Below, piece by piece: positions 6,817 to 20,691 of a stretch of DNA of 41,312 nucleotides. Source of the DNA: Promethearchaeota archaeon (lineage in GTDB: Archaea > Asgardarchaeota > Lokiarchaeia > Sigyniarchaeales > SOKP01); the NCBI GenBank assembly GCA_019058015.1, contig JAHLWH010000030.1, positions 1-41,312 of the forward strand, in the 5' to 3' direction. Under the pieces are notes generated by a model. That model had not been told where the DNA came from. It saw nothing but the letters and a program-made list of their open reading frames with translations, and made no database searches. Position 1 is the stretch's first letter, and each line of letters begins with the position of its first letter. The position numbers were made by a program, and so were the translations under genes.

Positions 6817-7764
6817 ATGAAAATCTTTATAGTTGCTAAGGGTGAATTAAAGGAAGTAAATAAGCCAATATTTTCCTCTGGAGATACTTATATTGTTGAT
6901 GATGAAAAAACCATTTATATATGGCTTGGTAAATATTGCTCGGTAGATGAAAAAACATTTGCGGCAATGAAAGCTAGAGAATTGGATGAGCAAAGAAGTG
7001 GTGCTGCAAAAATTATTACTCTTGATCAAGGTCAAGAAATAAAAGAGTTTTTACAACTTGTTGGAGGAATGAAAATCGTAGATAAAAATTTAGCAAAGAC
7101 TATGCTTATTGATGTAGACACTGGTGATTGGTCAGGTGCGGGAGAGCATGTAAACACACTCTATAGAGTCTCTTCTGAAGAGTTTGAAGATATAAATACC
7201 ATGAAATTTATCCAAGTACCCTTTAAAAAAGAAAGTTTAGATTCTGAAGATTGTTTTATTGCAGATTTAGGAGATAAAATTTATATTTGGCAAGGTGCGA
7301 ATTCTAATGTCAAAGAAAAAGTAAAAGGTGGACAATGGGCAAGAAGTTTTGACGCTGAACGAGCAGGATCACAAAATGAAGTTATTTTTGAAGAAGGTGA
7401 TGACTCAGAATTTATGAAAATTTTCGAAGAAAAAGTTGAGACCTCTGTTGATGAACATGTACAATTTTCTGCAGAATCTGCATTAGAGAAAGAAGAAGTC
7501 TCTGAACCGGTAAAAGAACCTGAGCCTGAAATGGTAATTATACCTATAAAAGAACCCCCTACCCCAACTACAATGGATTTGGATACTGGGATATTAACAG
7601 TAGGAAAACCCACTGGACGACGTAAATGCCCCAAATGTGGCGAGGAACTTAAGTATATGATTCATGAGACCATTGACAAAAACAACATCATAATGGATTA
7701 TCCAAGAGTATATGGCAAGAAATACAAATGTGGAAAGTGCGGAACGGAGTGGAGGGAGAAATAG
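6817..7764 (+). CDS. Two-domain gelsolin (Asgard 2DGel-like) with acidic/Pro linker and C-terminal Zn-ribbon
   Basis: Two gelsolin repeats (FSSGDTYIVD..IYIWLG...EK; LDSEDCFIAD..IYIWQG...EK), then CPKCG...CGKCG at the C-terminus. Confidence 0.9.
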   Translation: MKIFIVAKGELKEVNKPIFSSGDTYIVDDEKTIYIWLGKYCSVDEKTFAAMKARELDEQRSGAAKIITLDQGQEIKEFLQLVGGMKIVDKNLAKTMLIDVDTGDWSGAGEHVNTLYRVSSEEFEDINTMKFIQVPFKKESLDSEDCFIADLGDKIYIWQGANSNVKEKVKGGQWARSFDAERAGSQNEVIFEEGDDSEFMKIFEEKVETSVDEHVQFSAESALEKEEVSEPVKEPEPEMVIIPIKEPPTPTTMDLDTGILTVGKPTGRRKCPKCGEELKYMIHETIDKNNIIMDYPRVYGKKYKCGKCGTEWREK

Positions 7765-8227: not shown

Positions 8228-9418
8228 TTAAGAACTACCTCTACGTAGAACTTTAATTTTCTTTTTTAAATCAATTATTTCATCTTTTAGTTTTCCAGAT
8301 TCCTTTTCCATCCGTGAATTTTCCATTTTAAGGATTTGAATGTTATCCAGATAACTGTTCTCTTTAGCCTTTAATGCTTCTAATTCTTTCTCGAAATTAA
8401 TTTTCAAATTTTCAATTTCAATATCTTTTTTTACAGATTCCTTTTGAGCTAATTCAAGTTTTTGTTCAACTCTCTTTACAATTTCTTCTTTTGCCATGCT
8501 TGATTTAGTGATTTCCACATTTTCTCTTTCTCGCTTAATAAGTTGCTCTTCAAATTCTTTAATTTTATCTTGCAATGATTTGGATTTTTCAAGTTGTTGA
8601 TTCAAATGATTTATTTCCCCGTTAAGAAAATTAATTTCTTCATTCTTTTCTGCCAATTTATCATAAATTTTCTCTCTTTCTTTAACTTTTTCTGTTAATT
8701 CTTGAATTTCTTCTTTTGCTTTATTGAGAGAGTTTTCCTTATCAAAAAGGGCTTTTTCTTTTTGTGTTATAATTTCATCTTTCTTTTCAATAATAACTTT
8801 TAATTTGTCATACTTAGACTTTTGAATAGTATCTTTCTCAAGATATTGAATTTGTTGATGAAGTTCTTGAATTTGAGAATCTCGTTGTTTAATTTTTTCT
8901 TGAAATTCACTAATACCATGTTCTCCTAATTCATATTCCTTAATTTTTGCTTCAAGTTGCTTGATTAGATTTTCCTTTTCATTTAATTGGCTAAATTTTA
9001 CAGAAAACTCATTAATTTGTTTATCTTTTTCAATCAATAAATCATTTTGTTCCCCAACTTTTAAATCCAAGGAAATAATTTTTTCTCTTTGTTCTTTTAT
9101 TTTTTTATTAATGTTATCTCTTTCTGCCGTTAATTTAGAAATAATTCCATCTTTTTCATTAATTTTTGACTCAAAATCGTTTGGGACTTCAGGTTTTTCA
9201 GCTTTAGAGGAGCTTGAATCCAACTGTTCAATATAATTTTTTAGCATTAAATTTTGTTCTTCTAATTGTTTATTTTTTTTCAGTAAGAAATCAACTTGAT
9301 CTTCTAAAGAAGACGGCATTTCTTCCTTGCTTTCTTTGCCTTCTTCTTCTTCTAGCCAACCTAATGCGGATAGGGCATCTGAAAGTGAATCGTTTTTTTC
9401 TTTTTTTTCATCATTCAT
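8228..9418 (-). CDS. Long coiled-coil protein
   Basis: 396 aa, E/K/Q/L/I-rich heptad pattern over most of its length. No TM segment or catalytic motif seen. Confidence 0.85.
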   Translation of the reverse strand: MNDEKKEKNDSLSDALSALGWLEEEEGKESKEEMPSSLEDQVDFLLKKNKQLEEQNLMLKNYIEQLDSSSSKAEKPEVPNDFESKINEKDGIISKLTAERDNINKKIKEQREKIISLDLKVGEQNDLLIEKDKQINEFSVKFSQLNEKENLIKQLEAKIKEYELGEHGISEFQEKIKQRDSQIQELHQQIQYLEKDTIQKSKYDKLKVIIEKKDEIITQKEKALFDKENSLNKAKEEIQELTEKVKEREKIYDKLAEKNEEINFLNGEINHLNQQLEKSKSLQDKIKEFEEQLIKRERENVEITKSSMAKEEIVKRVEQKLELAQKESVKKDIEIENLKINFEKELEALKAKENSYLDNIQILKMENSRMEKESGKLKDEIIDLKKKIKVLRRGSS

Positions 9419-9614
9419 TTATTTTATCAACGAAAGGGAGATATTTCATTCAATATTGAGTTTATCTATGTTAAAAATATAAAATGTTTATCTATATATC
9501 TTTTTCTTAAAATTCTAAGAATATAAATAATAATAGAAAGGAAATATTAAAATAATATTCGATATATTCGCAATATAGATCTATAAAAAATTTGAAGGAA
9601 AAAAATAAAGTATT

Positions 9615-10058
9615 ATGCAAATTCGTGCATTTACGGAGCAAGACGAAGATGAAATCACTAATCTAATGAAACAATTATGTTCAATAACAAATCAAGAATT
9701 TGGCGAGGACCGATGGAAGCACTCATTAATAGCGGAATTTAAGAAAGATATTAAGAATGAAATGATAGTTGCGTTTAACGAGATGGAAAACAAAGTTGCA
9801 GGGATGGCATTGATTTCTATTAGAAAAACAAATTTTGGATTTTTATTTGGAAATATTTCAAACTTAATAGTTGATCCAAATTATAGAGGAGAAGGTTTAG
9901 GGGAAAAATTAATAAGATACTCTATTGATTTCTTCAAAAAGAACCATATTAACTCTGTAAGAATTATTGTTAAAAAGGAGTTAGATGAAAGTGCAAGGAG
10001 TTTATTTATTAAATTTGGATTTAATGAAATTTTTAAAGTATTTGAATTAAAAATATGA
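9615..10058 (+). CDS. GNAT family N-acetyltransferase
   Basis: Acetyl-CoA motif A LIVDPNYRGEGLGEKLI and C-terminal ARSLFIKFGF. Confidence 0.9.
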   Translation: MQIRAFTEQDEDEITNLMKQLCSITNQEFGEDRWKHSLIAEFKKDIKNEMIVAFNEMENKVAGMALISIRKTNFGFLFGNISNLIVDPNYRGEGLGEKLIRYSIDFFKKNHINSVRIIVKKELDESARSLFIKFGFNEIFKVFELKI

Positions 10059-10122
10059 TATTTAAATTTTTATCTTCTAAATTAGTATTTTAAAGCAATT
10101 CAATAATATTTTTTGATACAAT

Positions 10123-11364
10123 ATGATAAAAAAATACAAAAAAGGGCAATCAATTTTATTAGAAGGTCCAGCTAAGGCCGCATTATTAAATGGAGAAGTT
10201 GAGATTTTTGGAAAAGTTATAAAGGTTACAGATAAAAGAGAAAGAATAGATCTTTTAGAACCGAATAAAAAAGATCCTAATGTAATAATTATTTCAACCG
10301 GTATAAGGTATCCTTTATTATTTTTGGAAGATTCTGAGATTGATATTTATGTGGCGAATGAAGACCAGGTTATTGAATTGGAGGATAATTCGATTCCAGA
10401 AAGTTGGGCTAAAATTTCTAATAAAATTATTGAAGATATTAAAAAATCGACCAGTACTACCCCAGCAAAAATAATGGTATTGGGTCTTAGCAGCGGGAAA
10501 ACGACAATTATTAAATATTTAGCCAATAAATTATTAGCAGAGGGTTTAAAGGGAGGATATTTAGATTCGGACTTAGGGCAGCAGCAGATGTATATTCCCA
10601 CAACGATTAATATTGGAATGATAGATTCACATGTTTTATCAACTCAAGATTTTCTTTCTAAAGACACAAAATTTATTGGTTCTACGTTTCCAAAAGCTGA
10701 CTTGAAATATATCTTACCACATTATTCTAAAGAATTAATAGAAGAATTTTGCAAGAAAAATAAAGAGATTCGATTCATTCTTATTGATACAGATGGCTGG
10801 ATCAAGACAGAAACTGGTATTCTTTATAAAAAACTTTTTACTTCTATGATTCAACCAGATTATGCTATCATATTTAAAAACAAGGAAGTAAAAGAGTTAG
10901 AGGAAATTGAGAAAGATATAAAAAAACTCAGTTCAAAACCTAAAATCTTTTTAATAGATGCTGAAAATAAATATTATTTTGAAAGAACTAAAGAAGATCG
11001 CCGGTTTTTAAGACAAAGGCAATTTGCTATGGTTTTTGAAAAATTTCGCAAAATTACTGTCCCTTTTAATGAGATAATACTGATTAAAGAGGAATATGAT
11101 ATGGAAAATAAAAAAATTATCGAAAAACAATTAAATTTCGAAGAATTGGGAAAATTACCCTATCATTATGTAATAATTGCTTTAAAAACCGAAAAGAATG
11201 AACTAATTAATATAGGACTTCTTTTTAACATAAATACTGAGAAACAATATTTTCTTTTGTATTCGGATTTTAATTATAAGGAGCAAATTAAAATTAAAAA
11301 GATCGTAATAGGAAGTCTTAGGCTCTCCGTCAAGGGAAATTATCAGGGGTATTTATATCTTTAA
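10123..11364 (+). CDS. Clp1/Nol9/Grc3-family polynucleotide 5'-kinase-like protein
   Basis: N-terminal LEGPA...GEVEIFG domain, GKTT, DSDLGQ, IDTDGW and the lid motif RRFLR. Confidence 0.85.
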   Translation: MIKKYKKGQSILLEGPAKAALLNGEVEIFGKVIKVTDKRERIDLLEPNKKDPNVIIISTGIRYPLLFLEDSEIDIYVANEDQVIELEDNSIPESWAKISNKIIEDIKKSTSTTPAKIMVLGLSSGKTTIIKYLANKLLAEGLKGGYLDSDLGQQQMYIPTTINIGMIDSHVLSTQDFLSKDTKFIGSTFPKADLKYILPHYSKELIEEFCKKNKEIRFILIDTDGWIKTETGILYKKLFTSMIQPDYAIIFKNKEVKELEEIEKDIKKLSSKPKIFLIDAENKYYFERTKEDRRFLRQRQFAMVFEKFRKITVPFNEIILIKEEYDMENKKIIEKQLNFEELGKLPYHYVIIALKTEKNELINIGLLFNINTEKQYFLLYSDFNYKEQIKIKKIVIGSLRLSVKGNYQGYLYL

Positions 11365-11483
11365 AGAAGTAAGTGATTCTATGTCTTTAATTTCAGAAAT
11401 CTCATTATTGCTGATGTTGTTCGTAGGGATTTCTCATAAGGTAAAAATTTTTCTTTATATTTGAAATATTTCGGGGAGAACAA

Positions 11484-12875
11484 TTGAACTTAGATGATTC
11501 AGATTTAATTGAGTTGGGTAAATATTTTGGTGTAAATCTAATATCATTTAAATTACTGAGGGAATCACAAGATGACAAATACGCCGATAAAATCAGAGAA
11601 AGGGCATTAAAAAAACTGGAGAAATCAAAGGAGAATTATTTAATTGAGAAAGAAATGTTTTATGCTGGAGCTATTGATTTTATGGTGGAAGAAAATAATG
11701 GACGCAAAAGATTTTTCGTACTTGAGACGAATGGAGGCTCATCAAGAGGTCTTTCAATTATAACACCTAAACAACAAGGATTGTTATTTGATGGATATTT
11801 ACAAGCAATAAAAAATTCCTTAAAAAACAATAAAAGAGAAGATAATAAGCTCTTTATTTTAGTTGGCACGCCTATTGATGATGCGCTGCTTCATGAAAAG
11901 ATTTTTCTATTAGAATATTTGAAAAAAAAAATATTAGAAATTGGATATAGCGTCAATATTTATACTGAATTAAATTTTAAGGGATTTTTTACTGAAGACG
12001 TGGCATTTTTTATCACAGATTATAAAAAAATAGCCTTGAATATCTCATTTAAAGATAATTGGGTTATGTATACAGATCAAAAAATAAATCTATTAATAGG
12101 AGATGGAATTGCTCGTAGGATAAAAGATGAAGTTTTTAAGCGATTAATAAGAGAAGATTTTCGAAAAATTAATACAATTATTGTCAATCCGATTTTTTTA
12201 ATTACAGATGATAAATCTTTAACTTATTTGGCTGAATATTTCGCTAAAAGTAAGTTAGAAAAATATCGAGTAAAATATCTGATGTTTAGTAAAGGAATTA
12301 ATGAAGAGGATTTATTGAAAAAAATGGATTTTGTTGTTAAAAATTACAATACAAATTTTATTATCAAACCAAGTGGTGGATCTGGTGGAGCAGGTATTAT
12401 TCCTATTAGTTCTGACGAAGATCCCTCGAATTTTAAAAAGATTATTAAAAAAAGTAAAGATGAATTTTTTGGAAAATTTCTTAAAAATCGAGATCCATAT
12501 CCCTACACAATTATGGAAATGGCAGATTTCTCCTTAATTGATTGGAGAAATGGAAATCACACTTTTGATATTAGAATTTATTTGAGTCAAAAAGAAGGGA
12601 AAATAATTCCAATTGGTGGTTTGGTTAGAATTGCACGTAATTCTTATGGAGGGACACTGAATAAACAGGAGTTTGTGGTTAATTTAAGTGGTTATAATGG
12701 AAACATTGAGGCAGATCGTGCATTAGCAATATCACCAAGTACTAGGGACATATTAAACCTCTCTGATGAGGATTTTGTTGATATGTTTTGTATTGGCTGT
12801 GTGCTCTTCAAGAGCATTACTGAAACGTATAAAAAAATTATTAATTTTTCAGATTGGAGTAAAATAATTGAATAA
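11484..12875 (+). CDS. Circularly permuted ATP-grasp amide/peptide ligase (TTL/YheCD-like motifs)
   Basis: GAIDFMV...FVLETN lies near the N-terminus. DDKSLT, FIIKPSGGSGGAGI, FDIRIY, RIA and VVNLS follow in the C-terminal half. TTG start preceded by GGGGAG. Confidence 0.75.
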   Translation: MNLDDSDLIELGKYFGVNLISFKLLRESQDDKYADKIRERALKKLEKSKENYLIEKEMFYAGAIDFMVEENNGRKRFFVLETNGGSSRGLSIITPKQQGLLFDGYLQAIKNSLKNNKREDNKLFILVGTPIDDALLHEKIFLLEYLKKKILEIGYSVNIYTELNFKGFFTEDVAFFITDYKKIALNISFKDNWVMYTDQKINLLIGDGIARRIKDEVFKRLIREDFRKINTIIVNPIFLITDDKSLTYLAEYFAKSKLEKYRVKYLMFSKGINEEDLLKKMDFVVKNYNTNFIIKPSGGSGGAGIIPISSDEDPSNFKKIIKKSKDEFFGKFLKNRDPYPYTIMEMADFSLIDWRNGNHTFDIRIYLSQKEGKIIPIGGLVRIARNSYGGTLNKQEFVVNLSGYNGNIEADRALAISPSTRDILNLSDEDFVDMFCIGCVLFKSITETYKKIINFSDWSKIIE

Positions 12876-14040
12876 TTCAAATTATTATATAGATAAGGAC
12901 ATATTAAACAAACTATTAATTCCACAAGAAAGAAAAAAATTATTAAATGAAATTTTTAATAAATTGGAATTATTTAATAAATCCGATTTTGTTGAGCTTG
13001 AATATTTAGAAATATCAGATGGTAAGATACCAGTTTTAACTATTAATCAGCCAAAAAGTTTAGATCAACTAAGAAAATTATATATAATGGTCGCATCTCA
13101 GCATAATGAATATTGCGGGCTTTTTGGACAAATATCTTATCTATTTGAATTAACCTCTACTAAAAATAAGGACCTCATATCCAATGAACTAAAAAATTCT
13201 ATGATAATATTATTTCCATTAATGAACCCTTATGGTTTCTTAAACCCTCGACCTGATAATAAATTCGGTTATTATTTGAAAAATGGTGACAATTTAAATA
13301 GATATTGGAGGAAGACTTTTATTCCCAATTTTAGGGAGAAAGATGAGGACAATAACCCATATATTATTCCGGAAAATGCTTTAGTCTTTAAAAATTTTAT
13401 GCAGAAATATTGGGAGAGGGATCTCGAGATATATTTAATCGATTTTCATGAAACTTCATTATTCAGAAGATTTACAGAGGATATGGTTAAAAATTTAAAT
13501 GCTTTCTACAAATTAGAGCATTATTATAAAATGTGGATTGTTGAATATCTCGTAAAAAGAGAAAATTTACCTAAGAGAGAACCATTATTTATGAAACCTC
13601 ATCCAGATTTAGATCACCATCATTTTAATATTACTATTAACCAAGGGGAACAATTAAGAGATAATTTAAAAGAAGCTTGGGAGAAAAATAATGACAAATT
13701 GCCCTTTGCTTATATTTATAATTACAAGAGCGGTGATTTTTGCAGATCAATTGCAAGAAATGTTCAAAGTAAATTGAAAGATCTCATGTGGGATATAAGA
13801 CAACCAGCATTTCTTCACCCAGAAGATCATGGATGTTTTGTCTGCTTGGGACATTCTACTCGAAGACCTAAAACATTCACATTTGAATTAGAATGTGACA
13901 AACAATTATTTAATCTTTTAGAAGAAATTGAAAAATGCAAAAGCAATCAAGTCTATTTTAACAAAAAAATTGATAATATCAATAAAATAATAGATATAGT
14001 AAGAGAAACAATTAAAGCAGCAGTAAATCTTAATTTTTAA
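12868..14040 (+). CDS. M14-family zinc carboxypeptidase / deacylase-like protein
   Basis: SQHNE, PLMNPYG, NLNR, IDFHE and a late TFELE. Overlaps the upstream gene by 8 nt. Confidence 0.75.
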   Translation: MNNSNYYIDKDILNKLLIPQERKKLLNEIFNKLELFNKSDFVELEYLEISDGKIPVLTINQPKSLDQLRKLYIMVASQHNEYCGLFGQISYLFELTSTKNKDLISNELKNSMIILFPLMNPYGFLNPRPDNKFGYYLKNGDNLNRYWRKTFIPNFREKDEDNNPYIIPENALVFKNFMQKYWERDLEIYLIDFHETSLFRRFTEDMVKNLNAFYKLEHYYKMWIVEYLVKRENLPKREPLFMKPHPDLDHHHFNITINQGEQLRDNLKEAWEKNNDKLPFAYIYNYKSGDFCRSIARNVQSKLKDLMWDIRQPAFLHPEDHGCFVCLGHSTRRPKTFTFELECDKQLFNLLEEIEKCKSNQVYFNKKIDNINKIIDIVRETIKAAVNLNF

Positions 14041-15028
14041 AGAAATTTAAGGCACAAGTAACTATTGACAATTCATTCTTTTTCAGTAAATGACCTCCCT
14101 TTTTAAAAACTAATGTGTTTTTGTTTGATAGCTCCAACAATTCTTTGTTTTTTATAAAATTCTTAAATTTTACGATTCTATCGTTTCTTGCATGAACTAA
14201 CATTACTTTTTTGGTGAATTCTTTCCATTTTACCTCGGAACCAGAAAAATTTTGAGTTTTAAAGTTTTTAATCACATGATAAGGAGATATTGCTAAATTG
14301 GTCTCTTCACTAGGAAATTGGTGCATTCCTTTAAAGAAATATCGAAGCCACACAATTGGATTAAAATGAGGAATGTTTTCTCTAAAGTCAGCAATTGCAG
14401 ATACTGCAAATACTTTTTTAATTTCTTCTAAAGGAAAACCTCCACATAAAATGGTCAACGCACCAATACTAAATCCGGCTGTATAAATCTCTTTGTTGCC
14501 CATCTTATCATTATTTTGAATCCATCTCACAATATGTAAAAAATCATTAATTCTATTCTTAATATCAGCTTTTTTTCCTACTTTTTTAGATTCACCAGTA
14601 CCACGAGCGTCATAAACAAGAACAGGATAACCAAAATTTACGATTGGAAGGAAAAAATATTCTAAATCTTCTTTTAGATCTGAAAATCCCGGGGATATTA
14701 TGATTATGGGTTTATTTTGAGATAAATAAGTTGAATTAGAAATTTTCAATTGATATATTGCACCGGATAAAGATCCCCCTTCAACAGAAATACTTATTTT
14801 TTCCATGTGTATATTTTTTAGGTTAAACTTATTCCATCTATCAAGCCATATATCACGAAAACTCCAATAAACTTCAAATGGAATTAATACAAATAGAAAA
14901 GTTATAAGGGATAATATAAAACATGTATAAAAAGGATTTCTCCAAGATGCATTGACATAAAAGATAAAAGCAGAAAAGAAGATATCCACAGTAATTAATA
15001 TTAATCTTTTACTATTTTTCGAAAGCAT
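14030..15028 (-). CDS. Membrane-anchored alpha/beta hydrolase
   Basis: Two N-terminal TM segments, SPGF oxyanion loop, YDARGTGES, GFSIG nucleophile, HARND and GGH. Confidence 0.85.
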   Translation of the reverse strand: MLSKNSKRLILITVDIFFSAFIFYVNASWRNPFYTCFILSLITFLFVLIPFEVYWSFRDIWLDRWNKFNLKNIHMEKISISVEGGSLSGAIYQLKISNSTYLSQNKPIIIISPGFSDLKEDLEYFFLPIVNFGYPVLVYDARGTGESKKVGKKADIKNRINDFLHIVRWIQNNDKMGNKEIYTAGFSIGALTILCGGFPLEEIKKVFAVSAIADFRENIPHFNPIVWLRYFFKGMHQFPSEETNLAISPYHVIKNFKTQNFSGSEVKWKEFTKKVMLVHARNDRIVKFKNFIKNKELLELSNKNTLVFKKGGHLLKKNELSIVTCALNFFKN

Positions 15029-15158
15029 GGTTCCCTAATTATTTTAACTTAAATACTTTAAAAAAAACCATCAATAAAAACTTGAAAAAAAAATAAATTC
15101 TGAAGAATCCTTTTTTTTAAAATTATCAAAAGTTGGTTTAAATTATCATTGTAGATTT

Positions 15159-15458
15159 TTATTTGTTAGCTTTATCCGACGGACAACCATAGTCGGTTCT
15201 AATCTCACAATTTCTCTTTGAACTACTTCCCGAACAATTTACACAAATTGTAGCCTTCAACATTTTTTCAATTTCACTTGCTGAACGCCCCGATTTTTCT
15301 TTATCAGTCTCATCTGCCAGCATCTCATCTTTAATTTTATTTAGATCCTCATAGGTTTCCTCTTCTAAATCATCGTCCCAGTCTTCTAAATCTATTTCCT
15401 CTTGAGCTGGAATGTCATCAATTTCTTCTTCTTTTTCTACGGTTTTTTTTTTACCCAT
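15159..15458 (-). CDS. Small acidic protein with C-terminal 4-Cys motif
   Basis: 99 aa, D/E-rich N-terminal half, then CVNC-x8-C-x7-CP. It fills the space between co-oriented genes. Confidence 0.7.
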   Translation of the reverse strand: MGKKKTVEKEEEIDDIPAQEEIDLEDWDDDLEEETYEDLNKIKDEMLADETDKEKSGRSASEIEKMLKATICVNCSGSSSKRNCEIRTDYGCPSDKANK

Positions 15459-15549
15459 AATATATCATTAATTTATTACTATGAAATAAATTTTATTTTT
15501 AGATTTTATAATAATATTTTCAATTTAAATAAAATAGAAATCTGAAAAA

Positions 15550-16827
15550 TTATGCATCTTCAAGCTTTATAATATCTTTTAATTGGTTATAAGCGATGCA
15601 ATTCTTTCTCTCTTGTTCAGAGCACATTTTAACTTTCCAACATCGATATTCATCACATAAGTAAGCGGGACATTTTTTCCTCTTTTGTTCTAAGCACTTT
15701 TTTATTCTCCAGCATTGAAAAGATGTTTCATAAAATTTGTGAAATTTTTTAGGAAGTTGGGTATAGTCAAAATTTGTCTTTTTCAAATGATCATCTAATG
15801 AGACTGAGTTATAGGTGTTCCAAAATAATAGAACTTTTTCTTTGTTTTCGGGTTGTTTTGCAAAATCAATCATCGCTGCTAATGTTTTTCCAGTATAAGT
15901 TGTCTCAATTTTGAAATCTTTCTGTTTTCCTTCTAATTCGTAAATTTTATCAACAGCTGCCTGACCACGCTTAGTTTTAACACCGTAATTTGATCCATAA
16001 TAACCTATCTCTAAATCAAAATCATTTTCATTTATTATAATATTAGGAACGGATTTATCATATTTGCGTAAAAGTTTAATAACCTTATTTGCAGTTCTCG
16101 CAATATTTTTAGTGTTTATTACGATTGCATCAGCTACTCTAACTGGTCTAATTTTTGTTTTTAATCCAACAATTTTACATCCAGCAATTAAACCTGCCGC
16201 AGTGCCCGTAGAACCACATGGTACAAAGATATAATCTGGCACAGGTATCTCTCCAGCATCTATTTGTTTTTTTAATTCAAAAACTGCATTTACAAAACCT
16301 AATGTTCCGAGGGAAGTACCAATGCCCAACAGAGGTGAAGCTCCAATAAGCATTAGATAATAGTTTCGTTTAAACAATCTTACTCCGAGCAGTCTAAGTA
16401 TTAATCTATAAACACCTTTTACAAATATAATCTTTGCACCAAGATGATGATATAATAATAATGATCGCTGAACATGCCACGTTAAAGGTTGAGGAAATAA
16501 ATATAATTGAGTTTTTAAGCCAAATTGATTTCCAACAAATACAGCCGCTAATCCGTGATTGGTGCCTATGCCACCAGCAGTTGCAACGATTTTTTTTCCA
16601 GACTTTAAAATTTTCCCATAAACAAATTCGTATTTTCTGATTTTATTTCCACCATAGAAATCGGTACTTATATCATCCCTTTTAATCCATAGGTTATTAT
16701 GCTCAAGCTCCTTTCCTAAATTTTCCATCTTTTGAACAGGAGTCGGATATTTGGCTATAGCGACCCATGGAATCCTATCCTTTAAGTTTGGATATCTTTC
16801 AAAAAGAATTGGTTTATCTCTGACCAT
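15550..16827 (-). CDS. D-cysteine desulfhydrase / ACC deaminase family PLP enzyme with Cys-Trp repeat tail
   Basis: PTP, IKRDD, GGNKIRK (PLP lysine), TNHG, PCGSTGTAAG and ETTYTGK, plus an extra Cys-rich C-terminus. Confidence 0.9.
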   Translation of the reverse strand: MVRDKPILFERYPNLKDRIPWVAIAKYPTPVQKMENLGKELEHNNLWIKRDDISTDFYGGNKIRKYEFVYGKILKSGKKIVATAGGIGTNHGLAAVFVGNQFGLKTQLYLFPQPLTWHVQRSLLLYHHLGAKIIFVKGVYRLILRLLGVRLFKRNYYLMLIGASPLLGIGTSLGTLGFVNAVFELKKQIDAGEIPVPDYIFVPCGSTGTAAGLIAGCKIVGLKTKIRPVRVADAIVINTKNIARTANKVIKLLRKYDKSVPNIIINENDFDLEIGYYGSNYGVKTKRGQAAVDKIYELEGKQKDFKIETTYTGKTLAAMIDFAKQPENKEKVLLFWNTYNSVSLDDHLKKTNFDYTQLPKKFHKFYETSFQCWRIKKCLEQKRKKCPAYLCDEYRCWKVKMCSEQERKNCIAYNQLKDIIKLEDA

Positions 16828-17668: not shown

Positions 17669-18598
17669 TTGAGAGCAAACAAATTTCAAGGAAACATTTT
17701 AAATTATTTAGGGGAATATAATAATATTGTTTCACTTCGAAATTTTAAAAGAAGACAAAACAAAAAAGTAAAGAAAATTGTTGGTGTCCCACACCCTTTT
17801 ATTAAATGGGCAGGTGGAAAAAAACAATTATTAGAACAAATAAATAAATACCTTCCAAAAAAATTTAATAAATATTTAGAACCATTTGTTGGAGGAGGAG
17901 CATTGTTTTTTTACTTACTACCGAATAAAGCAATCCTAATTGATAATAATAAAGAATTAATAAATTGTTATAGAGTAATTCAGAATAAAATTGGAGAATT
18001 AATTAATTCTTTAAAAAAACATAAAAACAAAAAAGATTACTTTTATAAAATCCGAAGTATTGACAGAATCCCAGAAGAATTTAAAAAGCTCACAGATGTA
18101 GAGAGGGCTTCTCGAACTATTTTTTTAAATAAATGTTGTTTTAATGGGTTATATAGAGTCAATAGTAAAGGAGAATTTAATGTTCCCTTTGGTAAATATG
18201 AAAATCCTAAATTTTGTGATGAAGAAAATTTATTAGCTGTAAATACGATACTGAAAGATATTGAGATTATTAATGGAGATTTTAAGGAATGTTTAGAATT
18301 AGCTGAAAAGGATGATTTTATTTATTTTGACCCTCCATATCAACCAATTTCGACCACTGCTAATTTTACTAGTTATACCAAAGAGAATTTTAATAAAGAA
18401 GATCAAGTGAGACTGTTTAAAGTTTATGAAGAGTTAGATAATCGTGGATGTAAAGTTATGTTAAGTAATTCCTATAATGATTTTATTTTAGATTTGTATA
18501 AAAAATATGATTTAAAAACAGTTTATGCAAAAAGAGCTATAAATTCAGATGCTTCAGGTAGAGCACAAATTAAAGAGGTTTTAATTATAAACTATTAA
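17669..18598 (+). CDS. dam: Dam/DpnM-family (D12 class) DNA adenine methyltransferase
   Basis: PFIKWAGGK, EPFVGGGA, FNGLYRVNSKGEFNVPFG, DPPY, FTSY, MLSNS. The start codon is uncertain. Confidence 0.92.
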   Translation: MRANKFQGNILNYLGEYNNIVSLRNFKRRQNKKVKKIVGVPHPFIKWAGGKKQLLEQINKYLPKKFNKYLEPFVGGGALFFYLLPNKAILIDNNKELINCYRVIQNKIGELINSLKKHKNKKDYFYKIRSIDRIPEEFKKLTDVERASRTIFLNKCCFNGLYRVNSKGEFNVPFGKYENPKFCDEENLLAVNTILKDIEIINGDFKECLELAEKDDFIYFDPPYQPISTTANFTSYTKENFNKEDQVRLFKVYEELDNRGCKVMLSNSYNDFILDLYKKYDLKTVYAKRAINSDASGRAQIKEVLIINY

Positions 18599-18633: not shown

Positions 18634-20691
18634 TCATAAATTTTCAATTAATTTAATCCACTTATGACTTAGGATTAGAGTCATTTCATTATGAAGCTTA
18701 TTTGAATTAGAGTAAAAATCATAAAGATTTACAATCTGGTCCAATATATTTTTAGATTTAAATGGGGCTAATTTTCTAAAATTATTTGATTTTATTTCAC
18801 GATAAGGAAATATTTCATTTATATCAGGAAAGATATTTTCATTTTTCATAATTTTTAAAATCTCCTTGCAATAAATATTATCATTCTGAATAATTTCGGA
18901 GAAATATAGATAATATACCAAACAATTAATTAATTTCCTAAAGAACTCAAGAATGCTATTAAGAGATTCCTCTTGAATACAGTTGCATTGTTGATCTTGA
19001 ATAATTTCATATTTTAATTGATGTAGAAAGTGAAGTAATTTTCCTAGTTTTGAGAAAATTTGGGGAATGTTTGAAGGAAGGGGAATTCTCTTTAAGAAAC
19101 TTCCATTAAAGCGTAGGTATCCAGAAGCCATATGTAAGGAGCTGAAAAGTGATTTAAAAATATAATCTACACATTTAGAGTTCATAATAACTGAGAGAGA
19201 AAATAGCTTTTCTACTGAGATATCTTCTCCTAAAAGCATATAAGCCCCTGTTATATTAATAAAATAACCAAGATCGCAAAATACTGTCATGTCTTTTGCA
19301 ATTTCTTTAAAAATCAATTTAGGTTTCTGAAGATCATTCCAAAATCTATTAAAATTTTTATTATAAGGAAAAAATGACATAAATAAACGTCTATTGGCAA
19401 TTTTTATTTCTTTATTAAATTTAATGTGGAATTTTCCAATATTGCTCGTCCCGATCAATATAAGATCCTTTTCATTATATCTTTTATTCACAATAAGGTC
19501 CAGATATTTTGCCCAATTCGTAAAAGTGAATGGTCTATAGATGAATTTTGAATTTATATAGATTTCTTCAAGTGGTTTAAAATTGGATATAAGATAATTT
19601 ATAATATTAAAATCACCAACAATCGGAATTACTAAAGATGGAATTTGATTAATGTTGGATTGTACTATTTTTTTACTAAGAAATCTTTTAAATAGAAAGT
19701 CTTCGATGATTTCAGATTTTTGAGCATTTTTAATTGAAATCATATGTTCAGAATTCAATAAATTTTTCGATTTTAGGAAAGAAATAATTATTGGATAGAT
19801 TGAGGCCTTTTTAAAGATTTTTAATAAAGAAATATCAACTATTTCCAGAATTTTTGTTTGATTTATAAGTAGATTTCGAATTTTTAGACCATAATCAGCT
19901 GAAAGAAATTTATTTGTTATAATGAAAGAGCAATATCCTTTATTTTTCAATAATTGATATGCTCGTTCTATAAATAAAATAGAAATATCATATAATTTAT
20001 AAGCAGATTCATATTTTTGCTTTAGAATTTGTTTGTTAAAGTAGGATTTCATTTTTTTATTTTCAATATATGGAGGATTTCCCAATATAATATCGAATTT
20101 TTTAAAATCAACGATTTTATCTTCAATTAAAAAATTACCGAGAATTATATTATTTTTTAATAAATCACGTTTTGGAGTTGCTTTTCTATTATAAAACCAG
20201 TTTATTAGGCGTAATTGACATAATTTAATAGCTTGTGTGTCCAAATCTACACCAAATAAATTGTGTTTAATAATTGATTTTTTTATTTTAAATTGATCTT
20301 CAGTGGGATTTAAGATCTTAAATAGTTGAAAGAGGATAGTAGCCATTGATATTAAAAATCGGCCAGTTCCACAAGCGGGATCGAGTATTTTAATTGAGTT
20401 AATTAAATCGTTTAATACTTTTTTTAAATTATTATTATCTTTTAATAATGATTTTAGTGATGAAAAATTTGGTTCTTTTATAAGATCGAGATATTTAGAG
20501 ATTTCCTGTTGTTTTAATATAGCGTTTATATGATATTGAATACTTTTTAAACAAATATATCTGCATATTGTTGCCGGAGTATAAACAGTTCCTTTAAGTT
20601 TCCCACTCTTTTTATTATTAGAAAGTTGGTTTTCAAAATCTTCGATTTTTTTTTGAATTTCATCGAAGTTTTCAAATATTGTTTTTTTCAT
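18634..20691 (-). CDS. N6-adenine DNA methyltransferase (Eco57I/TaqI-like gamma class) with TRD, no nuclease domain
   Basis: GTVYTP, ILDPACGTGRFL, FGVDLD, GNPPY and a TaqI-C-like region (KLIFKEI...MNS...LKRIPLP). Confidence 0.88.
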   Translation of the reverse strand: MKKTIFENFDEIQKKIEDFENQLSNNKKSGKLKGTVYTPATICRYICLKSIQYHINAILKQQEISKYLDLIKEPNFSSLKSLLKDNNNLKKVLNDLINSIKILDPACGTGRFLISMATILFQLFKILNPTEDQFKIKKSIIKHNLFGVDLDTQAIKLCQLRLINWFYNRKATPKRDLLKNNIILGNFLIEDKIVDFKKFDIILGNPPYIENKKMKSYFNKQILKQKYESAYKLYDISILFIERAYQLLKNKGYCSFIITNKFLSADYGLKIRNLLINQTKILEIVDISLLKIFKKASIYPIIISFLKSKNLLNSEHMISIKNAQKSEIIEDFLFKRFLSKKIVQSNINQIPSLVIPIVGDFNIINYLISNFKPLEEIYINSKFIYRPFTFTNWAKYLDLIVNKRYNEKDLILIGTSNIGKFHIKFNKEIKIANRRLFMSFFPYNKNFNRFWNDLQKPKLIFKEIAKDMTVFCDLGYFINITGAYMLLGEDISVEKLFSLSVIMNSKCVDYIFKSLFSSLHMASGYLRFNGSFLKRIPLPSNIPQIFSKLGKLLHFLHQLKYEIIQDQQCNCIQEESLNSILEFFRKLINCLVYYLYFSEIIQNDNIYCKEILKIMKNENIFPDINEIFPYREIKSNNFRKLAPFKSKNILDQIVNLYDFYSNSNKLHNEMTLILSHKWIKLIENL

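Follow-up and report, generated by a model that had tools for sequence, protein, structure and literature searches.

An overlapping gene pair encoding a predicted circularly permuted ATP-grasp ligase and a divergent M14-fold hydrolase in one family of Lokiarchaeia

The glutathionylspermidine (Gsp) synthetase/amidase of E. coli, GspSA, carries both a ligase and a hydrolase that undoes the ligase reaction, and in the tubulin tyrosine ligase (TTL) and TTL-like (TTLL) systems an ATP-grasp ligase likewise has an M14 carboxypeptidase as its counterpart, the M14D cytosolic carboxypeptidases (CCPs). Here we describe a comparable pair of overlapping genes on a 41,312-nucleotide (nt) stretch of a Lokiarchaeial genome (Promethearchaeota archaeon; Sigyniarchaeales, SOKP01; GenBank assembly GCA_019058015.1, contig JAHLWH010000030.1, positions 1 to 41,312), the whole of which we refer to as the window. 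The first gene encodes a predicted circularly permuted ATP-grasp ligase and the second a divergent protein of predicted M14 fold that we take for a zinc hydrolase (Table 1). Our preferred reading, which we hold at a probability of roughly 55%, is that the two form an opposed make-and-break pair acting on one amide bond to an amino acid, with an acceptor that is probably small. GspSA is the closest functional parallel to the pair, but its substrates are glutathione and spermidine and its hydrolase is a fused cysteine amidase domain, whereas the Lokiarchaeial hydrolase would be a separate M14-fold metalloenzyme. The TTL enzymes resemble the ligase in their central motifs, KP..G..G.GI and FDLRIY, but they are unpermuted and match only residues ~120 to 457 of it (Z 7.7 to 11.0; all Z scores here are from the all-against-all aligner VIA); unlike the TTL/CCP systems, the pair has no tubulin-like or other substrate linked to it and is absent from most Asgard lineages. 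Both proteins belong to uncharacterized families in which no Pfam or NCBIfam model reaches threshold, NCBIfam giving nothing near its cut-offs for either one. Judged by title, no paper was found on the ligase-hydrolase pair or on the wider RtcB-like/ligase/deacylase module described below, and none of the literature on circularly permuted ATP-grasp enzymes or on Asgard tubulin tyrosine ligases concerned this ligase family or the pair.

The AlphaFold2 (AF2) model of the ligase, built on the family alignment (predicted local distance difference test score, pLDDT, 94.8; predicted template modeling score, pTM, 0.93), returned 75 Foldseek matches at E ≤ 0.001. The top ranks are eukaryote-type glutathione and homoglutathione synthetases (E 3e-12 to 5e-10), followed by PDB entry 3k1t, the CP_ATPgrasp_1/2 protein 3n6x, YjfC/YgiC, Gsp synthetase and Cp1B, the last a ligase of the fungal E-64 pathway (PMC12568646). 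In VIA, 38 chains scored Z ≥ 8, and all of them (Z ≥ 8.2) are ATP-grasp-type by title, comprising ligases, inositol-phosphate kinases and synapsin, so that the ligase is predicted to have the three-domain ATP-grasp fold. The best whole-chain match is 3k1t, a structural-genomics entry from Methylobacillus flagellatus with the same permuted topology (Z 16.1, root-mean-square deviation 4.7 over 332 residues, model residues 42 to 454; Foldseek E 1.7e-10). Its title, 'putative gamma-glutamylcysteine synthetase', names a putative function, and the two proteins are just 12% identical, with no Pfam or NCBIfam family in common at threshold. E. coli Gsp synthetase/amidase (2io7) and its paralogues YgiC and YjfC (7uka, 7uk6), also permuted ATP-grasp enzymes, score Z 13.3 to 13.5 (Gsp synthetase 13.3, YgiC 13.5). 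The glutathione and homoglutathione synthetases (8fbz, 2hgs, 1m0w, 3kal), among them yeast, human and plant enzymes, share the circular permutation over 410 to 438 aligned columns (Z 12.7 to 13.0) and use ATP to join an amino acid to a carboxylate, as the predicted ligase would. At 11 to 17% identity and TM-scores of 0.35 to 0.44, this likeness is one of fold only, and nothing suggests that the ligase makes glutathione or is ancestral to the eukaryotic enzyme. The Pfam glutathione-synthetase families gave no match to the ligase at E ≤ 1 or to 44 of its relatives at E ≤ 0.01.

The permuted ATP-grasp chains align with the model from residue 2 to 42 onward, whereas canonical ATP-grasp enzymes align just from ~120 to ~447 and leave their own last 45 to 50 residues unmatched (ArgX is covered over residues 1 to 230 of 281, RimK to 242 of 294). 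Because of this difference, the ligase is best described as a predicted circularly permuted ATP-grasp enzyme in which the final canonical hairpin precedes the N-domain in the chain, as a first-pass annotation of the window had proposed from its motif order. Z scores for the canonical group were 12.6 for ArgX, 11.6 for LysX, 11.0 for TTLL11, 9.4 for TTL and 9.1 for RimK. The hairpin at residues 61 to 83, which carries D65, E81 and N83 and aligns with the permuted relatives only, would be the Mg-binding element of the ATP-grasp C-domain, moved to the N-terminus. The class that includes 3n6x is permuted as well (Z 12.3, Foldseek E 2.6e-9), and its profile PF14403 matched 1 of the 44 relatives (E 0.0018). 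CP_ATPgrasp proteins have alpha-E and transglutaminase partners; a Pfam scan of 12 neighboring open reading frames (ORFs) between 5320 and 20691 detected neither family, in agreement with what the annotation had said.

The residues and motifs that the annotation singled out in the ligase are present and are invariant across 25 close homologues. They comprise D65, E81 and N83 in GAIDFMV...LETNGGS, K295 within IIKPSGGSGGAGI, F361, D362 and R364 in FDIRIY, and VVNLS at 398 to 402. D65, E81, N83, K295 and R364 remain at least 90% conserved in 44 ligase-family sequences, down to 16% identity; K295, G298 to G304 and R364 are conserved in both sets, the same motifs align in TTLL7 and GshAB, and the ATP-binding stretch aligns with IVKPANGAMGHGI of TTLL7 and with other ATP-grasp enzymes. 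The catalytic site looks intact at the level of its residues. In Pfam, the ligase has sub-threshold matches to ATPgrasp_ST, YheCD and GSH-S_ATP over residues 240 to 385, with 21.7 bits for ATPgrasp_ST (PF14397, cut-off 31.4) and 15.5 bits for YheC/D (PF14398, cut-off 26.8). The annotation's label 'TTL-like' holds for short motifs: searched against PDB sequences, the ligase-family profile found TTLL7 as its sole match below E 0.01 (E 0.0012), by way of KP..G..G.GI and FDLRIY. It does not hold as family membership. Pfam TTL (PF03133) has no match to the ligase at E ≤ 1 and matches 2 of the 44 relatives at E ≤ 0.01, below threshold (best 2.7e-5), and the nearest folds are those of permuted small-molecule ligases. 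Single-protein sequence searches of the PDB gave nothing meaningful for either protein. One search returned 375 clusters of the ligase family at 90% identity, and a hidden Markov model (HMM) of the family run against 1.84 billion proteins recovered 92 representatives at 50% identity. Homologues of either protein that carry a name in their source are all called 'hypothetical protein' except one 'YheC/YheD family' and one 'TIM barrel enzyme'.

The second protein of the pair is predicted to have the alpha/beta fold of M14 carboxypeptidases, which sustains the annotation's assignment. Its AF2 model (pLDDT 85.5) matched M14 carboxypeptidases in Foldseek with E values from 4e-8 (103 matches at E ≤ 0.001), and the highest VIA scores were to procarboxypeptidase B (1kwm, Z 20.9), 7eqx (20.9), carboxypeptidase A (CPA; 1jqg, 20.5), the Pseudomonas CCP-like 4a37 (19.7), carboxypeptidase D (CPD; 1qmu, 19.5) and CCP5 (8v3q, 17.8), with the AstE/CphZ/MpaA group lower at Z 13 to 15. 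Pfam Peptidase_M14 (PF00246) falls just short of its cut-off (20.3 against 21.6 bits, E 4.7e-4, residues 54 to 247) and AstE/AspA (PF24827) well short (12.1 against 25 bits); the profile of the family, which forms 108 clusters, none of them named, matched carboxypeptidase N alone in the PDB (E 2.6), with NGVDLNRNF as the aligned motif. The conserved positions nonetheless follow in M14 order: QHNEY (78 to 82), PLMNPYGF, NLNR (142 to 145), DFHETS (H194) and F-E-L-E (E340, E342). In a 27-sequence alignment of hydrolases only 34 to 45% identical, Q78, N80, E81, N144, R145, H194 and E342 never vary, and H79 and E340 reach at least 90% conservation, one sequence having Q in place of the His at 79. 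The motif set is also present in a 24%-identical homologue from family f3. The N142 to R145 motif presumably binds the free carboxylate of the substrate, as it does in M14 enzymes. Four further invariant residues, C292, H317, H321 and C323 (window 13741 to 13836), stand shortly before the region of the candidate catalytic Glu and might belong to a second metal site or to the wall of the specificity pocket.

Table 1. Positions in the window of the ligase-hydrolase pair, its principal motifs and the conserved upstream gene
Feature	Position	Strand	Basis
Predicted circularly permuted ATP-grasp amide ligase gene, 463 amino acids	11484..12875	+	ORF, AF2 model, Foldseek/VIA matches
Gene for divergent predicted M14-fold zinc hydrolase, 390 amino acids	12868..14040	+	ORF, AF2 model, VIA
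8-nt overlap of ligase stop and hydrolase start	12868..12875	+	ORF coordinates
Ligase N-terminal beta-hairpin, residues 59-86, with D65, E81, N83	11658..11741	+	Model strands E61-71 and E74-83; conservation
Ligase ATP-binding strand and glycine-rich loop FIIKPSGGSGGAGI (K295)	12357..12398	+	K295, P296, G302, G304 conserved
Ligase FDIRIY motif (R364)	12564..12581	+	Conserved; aligns with KFDLRIYI of TTLL7
Hydrolase Q78-H79-N80-E81, shortened zinc motif (HxE, not HxxE)	13099..13110	+	27-sequence alignment, hhalign
Hydrolase N142-L143-N144-R145, M14-type substrate-carboxylate motif	13291..13302	+	Invariant; aligns with carboxypeptidase N
Hydrolase D192-F-H194-E-T-S197, candidate third zinc ligand	13441..13458	+	Invariant; position of D.H.GGPG in AstE-like partners
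Hydrolase E340-L-E342, candidate general-base glutamate	13885..13893	+	E342 invariant, E340 at least 90%; role from position in M14 pattern
Clp1-like P-loop kinase gene, upstream neighbor conserved in family f1	10123..11364	+	Pfam CLP1_P, 97.9 bits

The two genes are tightly linked wherever both occur. Profile searches of 400 genomes of the phylum gave ligase matches in 127, of which 125 are true family members (the source genome, 121/134 genomes of family f1, 2/14 of f3 and 1/2 of f7), and hydrolase matches in 89, confined to f1 and f3. The ligase is present in all 89 hydrolase-bearing genomes, and at 91 of the 96 places with a hydrolase match the hydrolase lies directly downstream of the ligase on the same strand; the remaining 5 are gene halves on other contigs. 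The gap between the two HMM matches is 4 to 81 nt, save for one split match at 553 nt. This adjacency is far beyond chance, and it bears out the expectation of the first-pass annotation that the genes would be conserved as neighbors. The pair is not a trait of Asgard archaea at large: apart from a few relatives, it occurs in essentially a single Lokiarchaeial family. A tree of the ligase (77 rows) unites the Asgard sequences in a single clade, with support of 100 in the Shimodaira-Hasegawa-like approximate likelihood ratio test (SH-aLRT). The presence or absence of the hydrolase changes 7 times on this tree, whose 49 labeled rows include four genomes entered twice, and at least 5 of the changes are forced by well-supported branches. 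The hydrolase was thus lost at least five times while the ligase was retained, which makes the ligase the retained core and the hydrolase dispensable. Four genomes carry short hydrolase remnants behind the ligase, interrupted by stop codons in three.

Relatives of the ligase outside the Lokiarchaeial family are linked to a zinc hydrolase of another kind. A scan of 185,579 species genomes returned homologues 29 to 43% identical to a Methanonatronarchaeum ligase query, from Methanohalarchaeum, Hadarchaeota, Thermoplasmatota, Actinomycetota, Chloroflexota, Bipolaricaulota and, as a fusion, Nannocystis. In 19 of 24 non-Loki loci an AstE/AspA-type deacylase (PF24827, E 1e-24 to 1e-27) occupies the place beside the ligase, in lineages comprising Methanonatronarchaeia, Hadarchaeota, Thermoplasmatota, Actinomycetota, Chloroflexota and Bipolaricaulota. 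These partners have the motif order QH(G)NE.NG, P..NP, D.NR, D.H, E in common with the Lokiarchaeial hydrolase. They differ from it in being ~314 amino acids long with a canonical HGNE, and 2 of 3 scanned have weak C-terminal barrel-sandwich (biotin-lipoyl-like) matches; the Lokiarchaeial protein has 390 residues, H-N-E and a helical C-terminus, and its fold is nearer classical M14 than AstE. Profile-profile alignment with hhalign nevertheless joins the two (92.5%, E 4.9e-7, N-terminal half only) and sets AQH-NEYNG opposite gqHGnEwNG with a one-residue gap. Because of this homology and the motif match (QHGNEWNG/AQH-NEYNG), the Lokiarchaeial hydrolase would most simply be a strongly diverged descendant of the AstE/AspA-type partner. 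In distant lineages, then, the ligase is again tied to a zinc hydrolase, there of the AstE/AspA type, and it is plausible that both enzymes act on a shared bond.

A ~400-residue protein with no Pfam family stands beside the ligase in 18 of the 24 non-Loki loci and together with the deacylase in 15; loci without these partners are mostly on short contigs. It keeps an Asp/Cys/His set (PNxCG, NHF, H.S, HQG, PHGGGY), its profile matches RtcB chains alone in the PDB, weakly (E 0.1 to 0.2), one member matches Pfam RtcB at E 0.0035, and in a language-model atlas its neighbors are archaeal clusters without a name and one cluster with 13% RtcB. A gene of this RtcB-like family is found at L043 9398-10606 (-) and L042 1013-2230; it flanks the ligase in the f7 locus and lies three genes upstream of it in an f3 locus, whereas in the source genome it is unlinked (L050 1468-2712; G000:C101:17425-18633). 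The idea that it co-occurs only with the ligase was rejected, since it is present in 212 of the 400 phylum genomes, many of them ligase-free, against 127 for the ligase profile. The 402-residue protein upstream in the Helarchaeota-labeled locus had been considered as a diverged Clp1 but shows no likeness to it and belongs to the RtcB-like family. In that locus, HD and metallophosphoesterase genes also lie upstream; HD-domain proteins occur in 3 of the 24 non-Loki loci as well, a TIM-barrel protein stands beside the RtcB-like gene in three loci, and an ABC-2 transporter pair lies near the ligase in three. A more distant ligase branch (16 to 22% identity) differs, in that none of 14 loci with a full-length ligase call carries a deacylase or RtcB-like partner; an ORF of 439 to 504 residues follows the ligase directly in 5 of the 14, and 2 of the 4 such ORFs scanned are MFS-like below the Pfam cut-off.

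Several side observations concern individual ligase loci. In the f3 locus just mentioned, genes for a pyruvoyl-dependent arginine decarboxylase and a deoxyhypusine synthase (L042 2268-3842) lie directly upstream of the ligase, between it and the RtcB-like gene; this polyamine/hypusine context comes from a single locus and may be due to chance. Three Anaerolineae loci (L065, L066, L073) hold two side-by-side ligase copies, an arrangement that would suit stepwise addition of two residues. One ligase of 674 residues (P0307) is fused to an N-terminal GPP34 (GOLPH3-like) domain, and the Nannocystis fusion (L126 4762-7221, 819 residues) has an N-terminal extension of ~357 residues to which no family could be assigned. 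As Rosetta stones, the one GPP34 fusion and two unassignable extensions are uninformative.

In the mechanism we favor, the ligase would hold ATP and Mg at K295, at the glycine loop, at R364 and at the N-terminal hairpin with D65, E81 and N83; a carboxylate, first converted to its acyl-phosphate, would then be coupled to an amino acid through the amino group of the latter. The M14-fold hydrolase, with an Asn-Arg clamp on the free alpha-carboxylate, would cut off the C-terminal amino acid and so break the same bond; a preference for a C-terminal amino acid is suggested by the retention of this clamp. Together the two would provide synthesis and turnover, with the ligase as the core activity and the hydrolase as an accessory that can be lost. 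The acceptor is, by analogy, more probably a small molecule or short peptide than a protein tail, because all characterized whole-chain fold neighbors of the ligase are small-molecule ligases, because the substrates of the ancestral AstE/AspA partner family are small N-acyl amino acids and because transporter-like genes recur near the ligase. The characterized AstE/AspA enzymes in the fold list of the hydrolase are, by title, succinylglutamate desuccinylase, CphZ and the ectoine-utilization enzymes EutE/DoeB, whose substrates are small N-acyl amino acids or dipeptides.

Several points weigh against this mechanism. The hydrolase is missing from 36 of the 125 ligase-bearing genomes, so the ligase product there needs no such enzyme for its turnover. 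With a zinc motif one residue shorter than usual (H-N-E), the hydrolase may not support ordinary zinc catalysis. Acceptor size is argued from analogy, and action on the same bond we infer solely from the adjacency of the genes. The ligase motifs resemble those of TTL, YheCD and ATPgrasp_ST, groups that include modifiers of proteins and polymers, and the fold of the hydrolase is nearer to protein and peptide carboxypeptidases (carboxypeptidase B, CPA, CPD and CCP5; Z 18 to 21) than to the AstE type. A prediction of the ligase-hydrolase complex scored 0.19 against a mark of 0.32 and is evidence for neither side.

The resemblances of the ligase motifs and of the hydrolase fold that count against a small acceptor speak for the interpretation of the first-pass annotation, a reversible tagging module in which a protein would receive one or more amino acids from the ligase, at an acidic tail or at its C-terminus, and would be trimmed again by the M14 enzyme. 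TTL/TTLL enzymes and CCPs act in this way on tubulin, and RimK acts on S6. The RimK-type motifs of the ligase, the isolated TTLL7 match of its profile and the presence of CCP-like 4a37 and CCP5 among the nearest folds of the hydrolase would fit such a role, and one of the candidate substrates that the annotation named is encoded nearby: a 99-residue protein (15159-15458, minus strand) with a very acidic N-terminal half and a C-terminal four-Cys motif, whose Cys-rich part is matched near the ligase in 14 of 16 f1 loci. However, this protein has no acidic C-terminal tail and persists in loci where the hydrolase has been lost, and no candidate substrate covaries with the pair. The whole-chain fold neighbors are small-molecule ligases, with TTLL chains lower (Z 11.0, 9.2 and 7.7) and aligned over the unpermuted core only; the non-Asgard relatives are accompanied by AstE/AspA-type deacylases and have transporter genes close by, and the pair is confined to one family. 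We consider protein tagging unlikely on this evidence. We are equally doubtful of a broader version in which the target is a macromolecule of either kind, a protein C-terminus or acidic side chain or else an RNA- or nucleotide-linked carboxylate supplied by the RtcB-like partner, from which the H-N-E carboxypeptidase removes the added amino acid or short chain; such a reversible system would have arisen independently of the eukaryotic tubulin code. What stands of the tagging module is the coupling of the genes and a plausible shared bond; its protein target does not, since no substrate protein was identified. The alternative that the annotation had itself named, a small-molecule ligase/hydrolase pair, is better supported than tagging, though not proven.

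A sequential pathway would order the two activities differently: the hydrolase would free a carboxylate or amino acid for the ligase, or release an end product from a carrier. LysX, an ATP-grasp enzyme, and LysK, which is carboxypeptidase-like, act in this manner in LysW-mediated lysine synthesis, and both ArgX and LysX are good core matches to the ligase. Tight gene coupling would suit a pathway, as would the wider module with its RtcB-like, HD-domain and TIM-barrel proteins. In the Helarchaeota-labeled genome, which has no M14-like gene, an M20 peptidase gene lies tail-to-tail with the ligase, 30 nt apart (L043 6489-7943), and may encode a stand-in hydrolase. No carrier protein gene was seen, however, and the repeated loss of the hydrolase with the ligase kept is ill-suited to an obligatory step, leaving this arrangement somewhat less probable again than tagging.

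The gene neighbors raise the further idea that the ligase works with the RtcB-like enzyme or the Clp1-like kinase on an RNA- or nucleotide-linked carboxylate at an RNA end. The RtcB-like gene flanks the ligase in most non-Loki loci and occurs in the f3 and f7 Asgard loci, RtcB chains are the only PDB matches of its profile, and in 15 of 16 f1 loci the Clp1-like gene precedes the ligase at a distance of no more than ~1.3 kb (directly in 13, with one extra ORF between in 2). The frequency of the RtcB-like gene in ligase-free genomes and its separate location in the source genome argue against such a role, as do the ligase's own upstream gap and probable TATA-like box and a zinc carboxypeptidase-type partner without evident RNA function. 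A functional tie of the Clp1-like kinase to the ligase is unproven, and its adjacency may be inherited synteny, for it falls inside a conserved gene-order block and the gene is not beside the ligase in f3 and f7. We regard RNA-end chemistry as very improbable. Hardly more credible is the suggestion that the M14-like protein is no hydrolase and serves the ligase as a metal-poor subunit for binding or regulation, for although HxxE is shortened to H-N-E in 27/27 aligned sequences, with Q for His in one, and many genomes dispense with the gene, the conservation of the remaining site residues among hydrolases only 34 to 45% identical fits a working site, and the distant f3 homologue retains the set.

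The layout of the locus fits translational coupling of the pair. The 8-nt overlap noted in the first-pass annotation is confirmed by the ORF coordinates: the ligase stop codon, TAA, occupies 12873-12875, and the hydrolase start is the TTG at 12868, the sole ATG, GTG or TTG that precedes the conserved hydrolase N-terminus. The ligase ORF also starts with TTG, and Shine-Dalgarno-like sequences stand 5 nt before the ligase start (GGGGAG, 11473-11478) and 8 nt before the hydrolase start (GGAG, 12856-12859). A gap of 119 nt separates the upstream gene from the ligase, and because it holds a TATA-like TTTATATT ~25 to 30 nt before the ligase start, the pair probably has its own promoter. A scan of the locus for sigma-70 promoters and terminators stayed at chance level, with a model unsuited to archaea, and an Rfam scan of 9400-15600 found nothing at E ≤ 1, and hence no riboswitch hint of a ligand. 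G+C content is ~27% throughout the window. In f1 the gene order GNAT, Clp1-like kinase, ligase, hydrolase, convergent alpha/beta hydrolase and small acidic Cys-rich protein is kept; outside f1 it is not. In two genera a 350-residue ORF without a Pfam family lies between the Clp1-like gene and the ligase (L033 2275-3327; L037 6682-7734). Elsewhere in the window, a gelsolin-repeat protein typical of Asgard archaea (6817-7764, plus strand; Pfam Gelsolin, E 1.4e-27) has as neighbor a long coiled-coil protein (8228-9418, minus strand), and a D12-class adenine methyltransferase (17669-18598, plus strand) and an Eco57I/MmeI-type methylase (18634-20691, minus strand) are probably restriction-modification genes.

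The pair has no bearing on eukaryote origins, since it is limited to one Lokiarchaeial family and its ligase groups with bacterial and other archaeal homologues, and the connection to eukaryotic TTLL/CCP systems that the first-pass annotation drew amounts to analogy. The ligase represents a new branch of the small circularly permuted ATP-grasp class, and its partner has the M14 fold with a zinc motif that is consistently one residue shorter. Should the pair make a new metabolite or cofactor, it would add useful yet ordinary enzymology; should it write a protein tag after all, it would be a rare prokaryotic parallel of tubulin-tail editing. The repeated grouping of an RtcB-like protein with a permuted ligase and a zinc deacylase, in archaea and bacteria of scattered lineages, suggests a pathway that has yet to be described.

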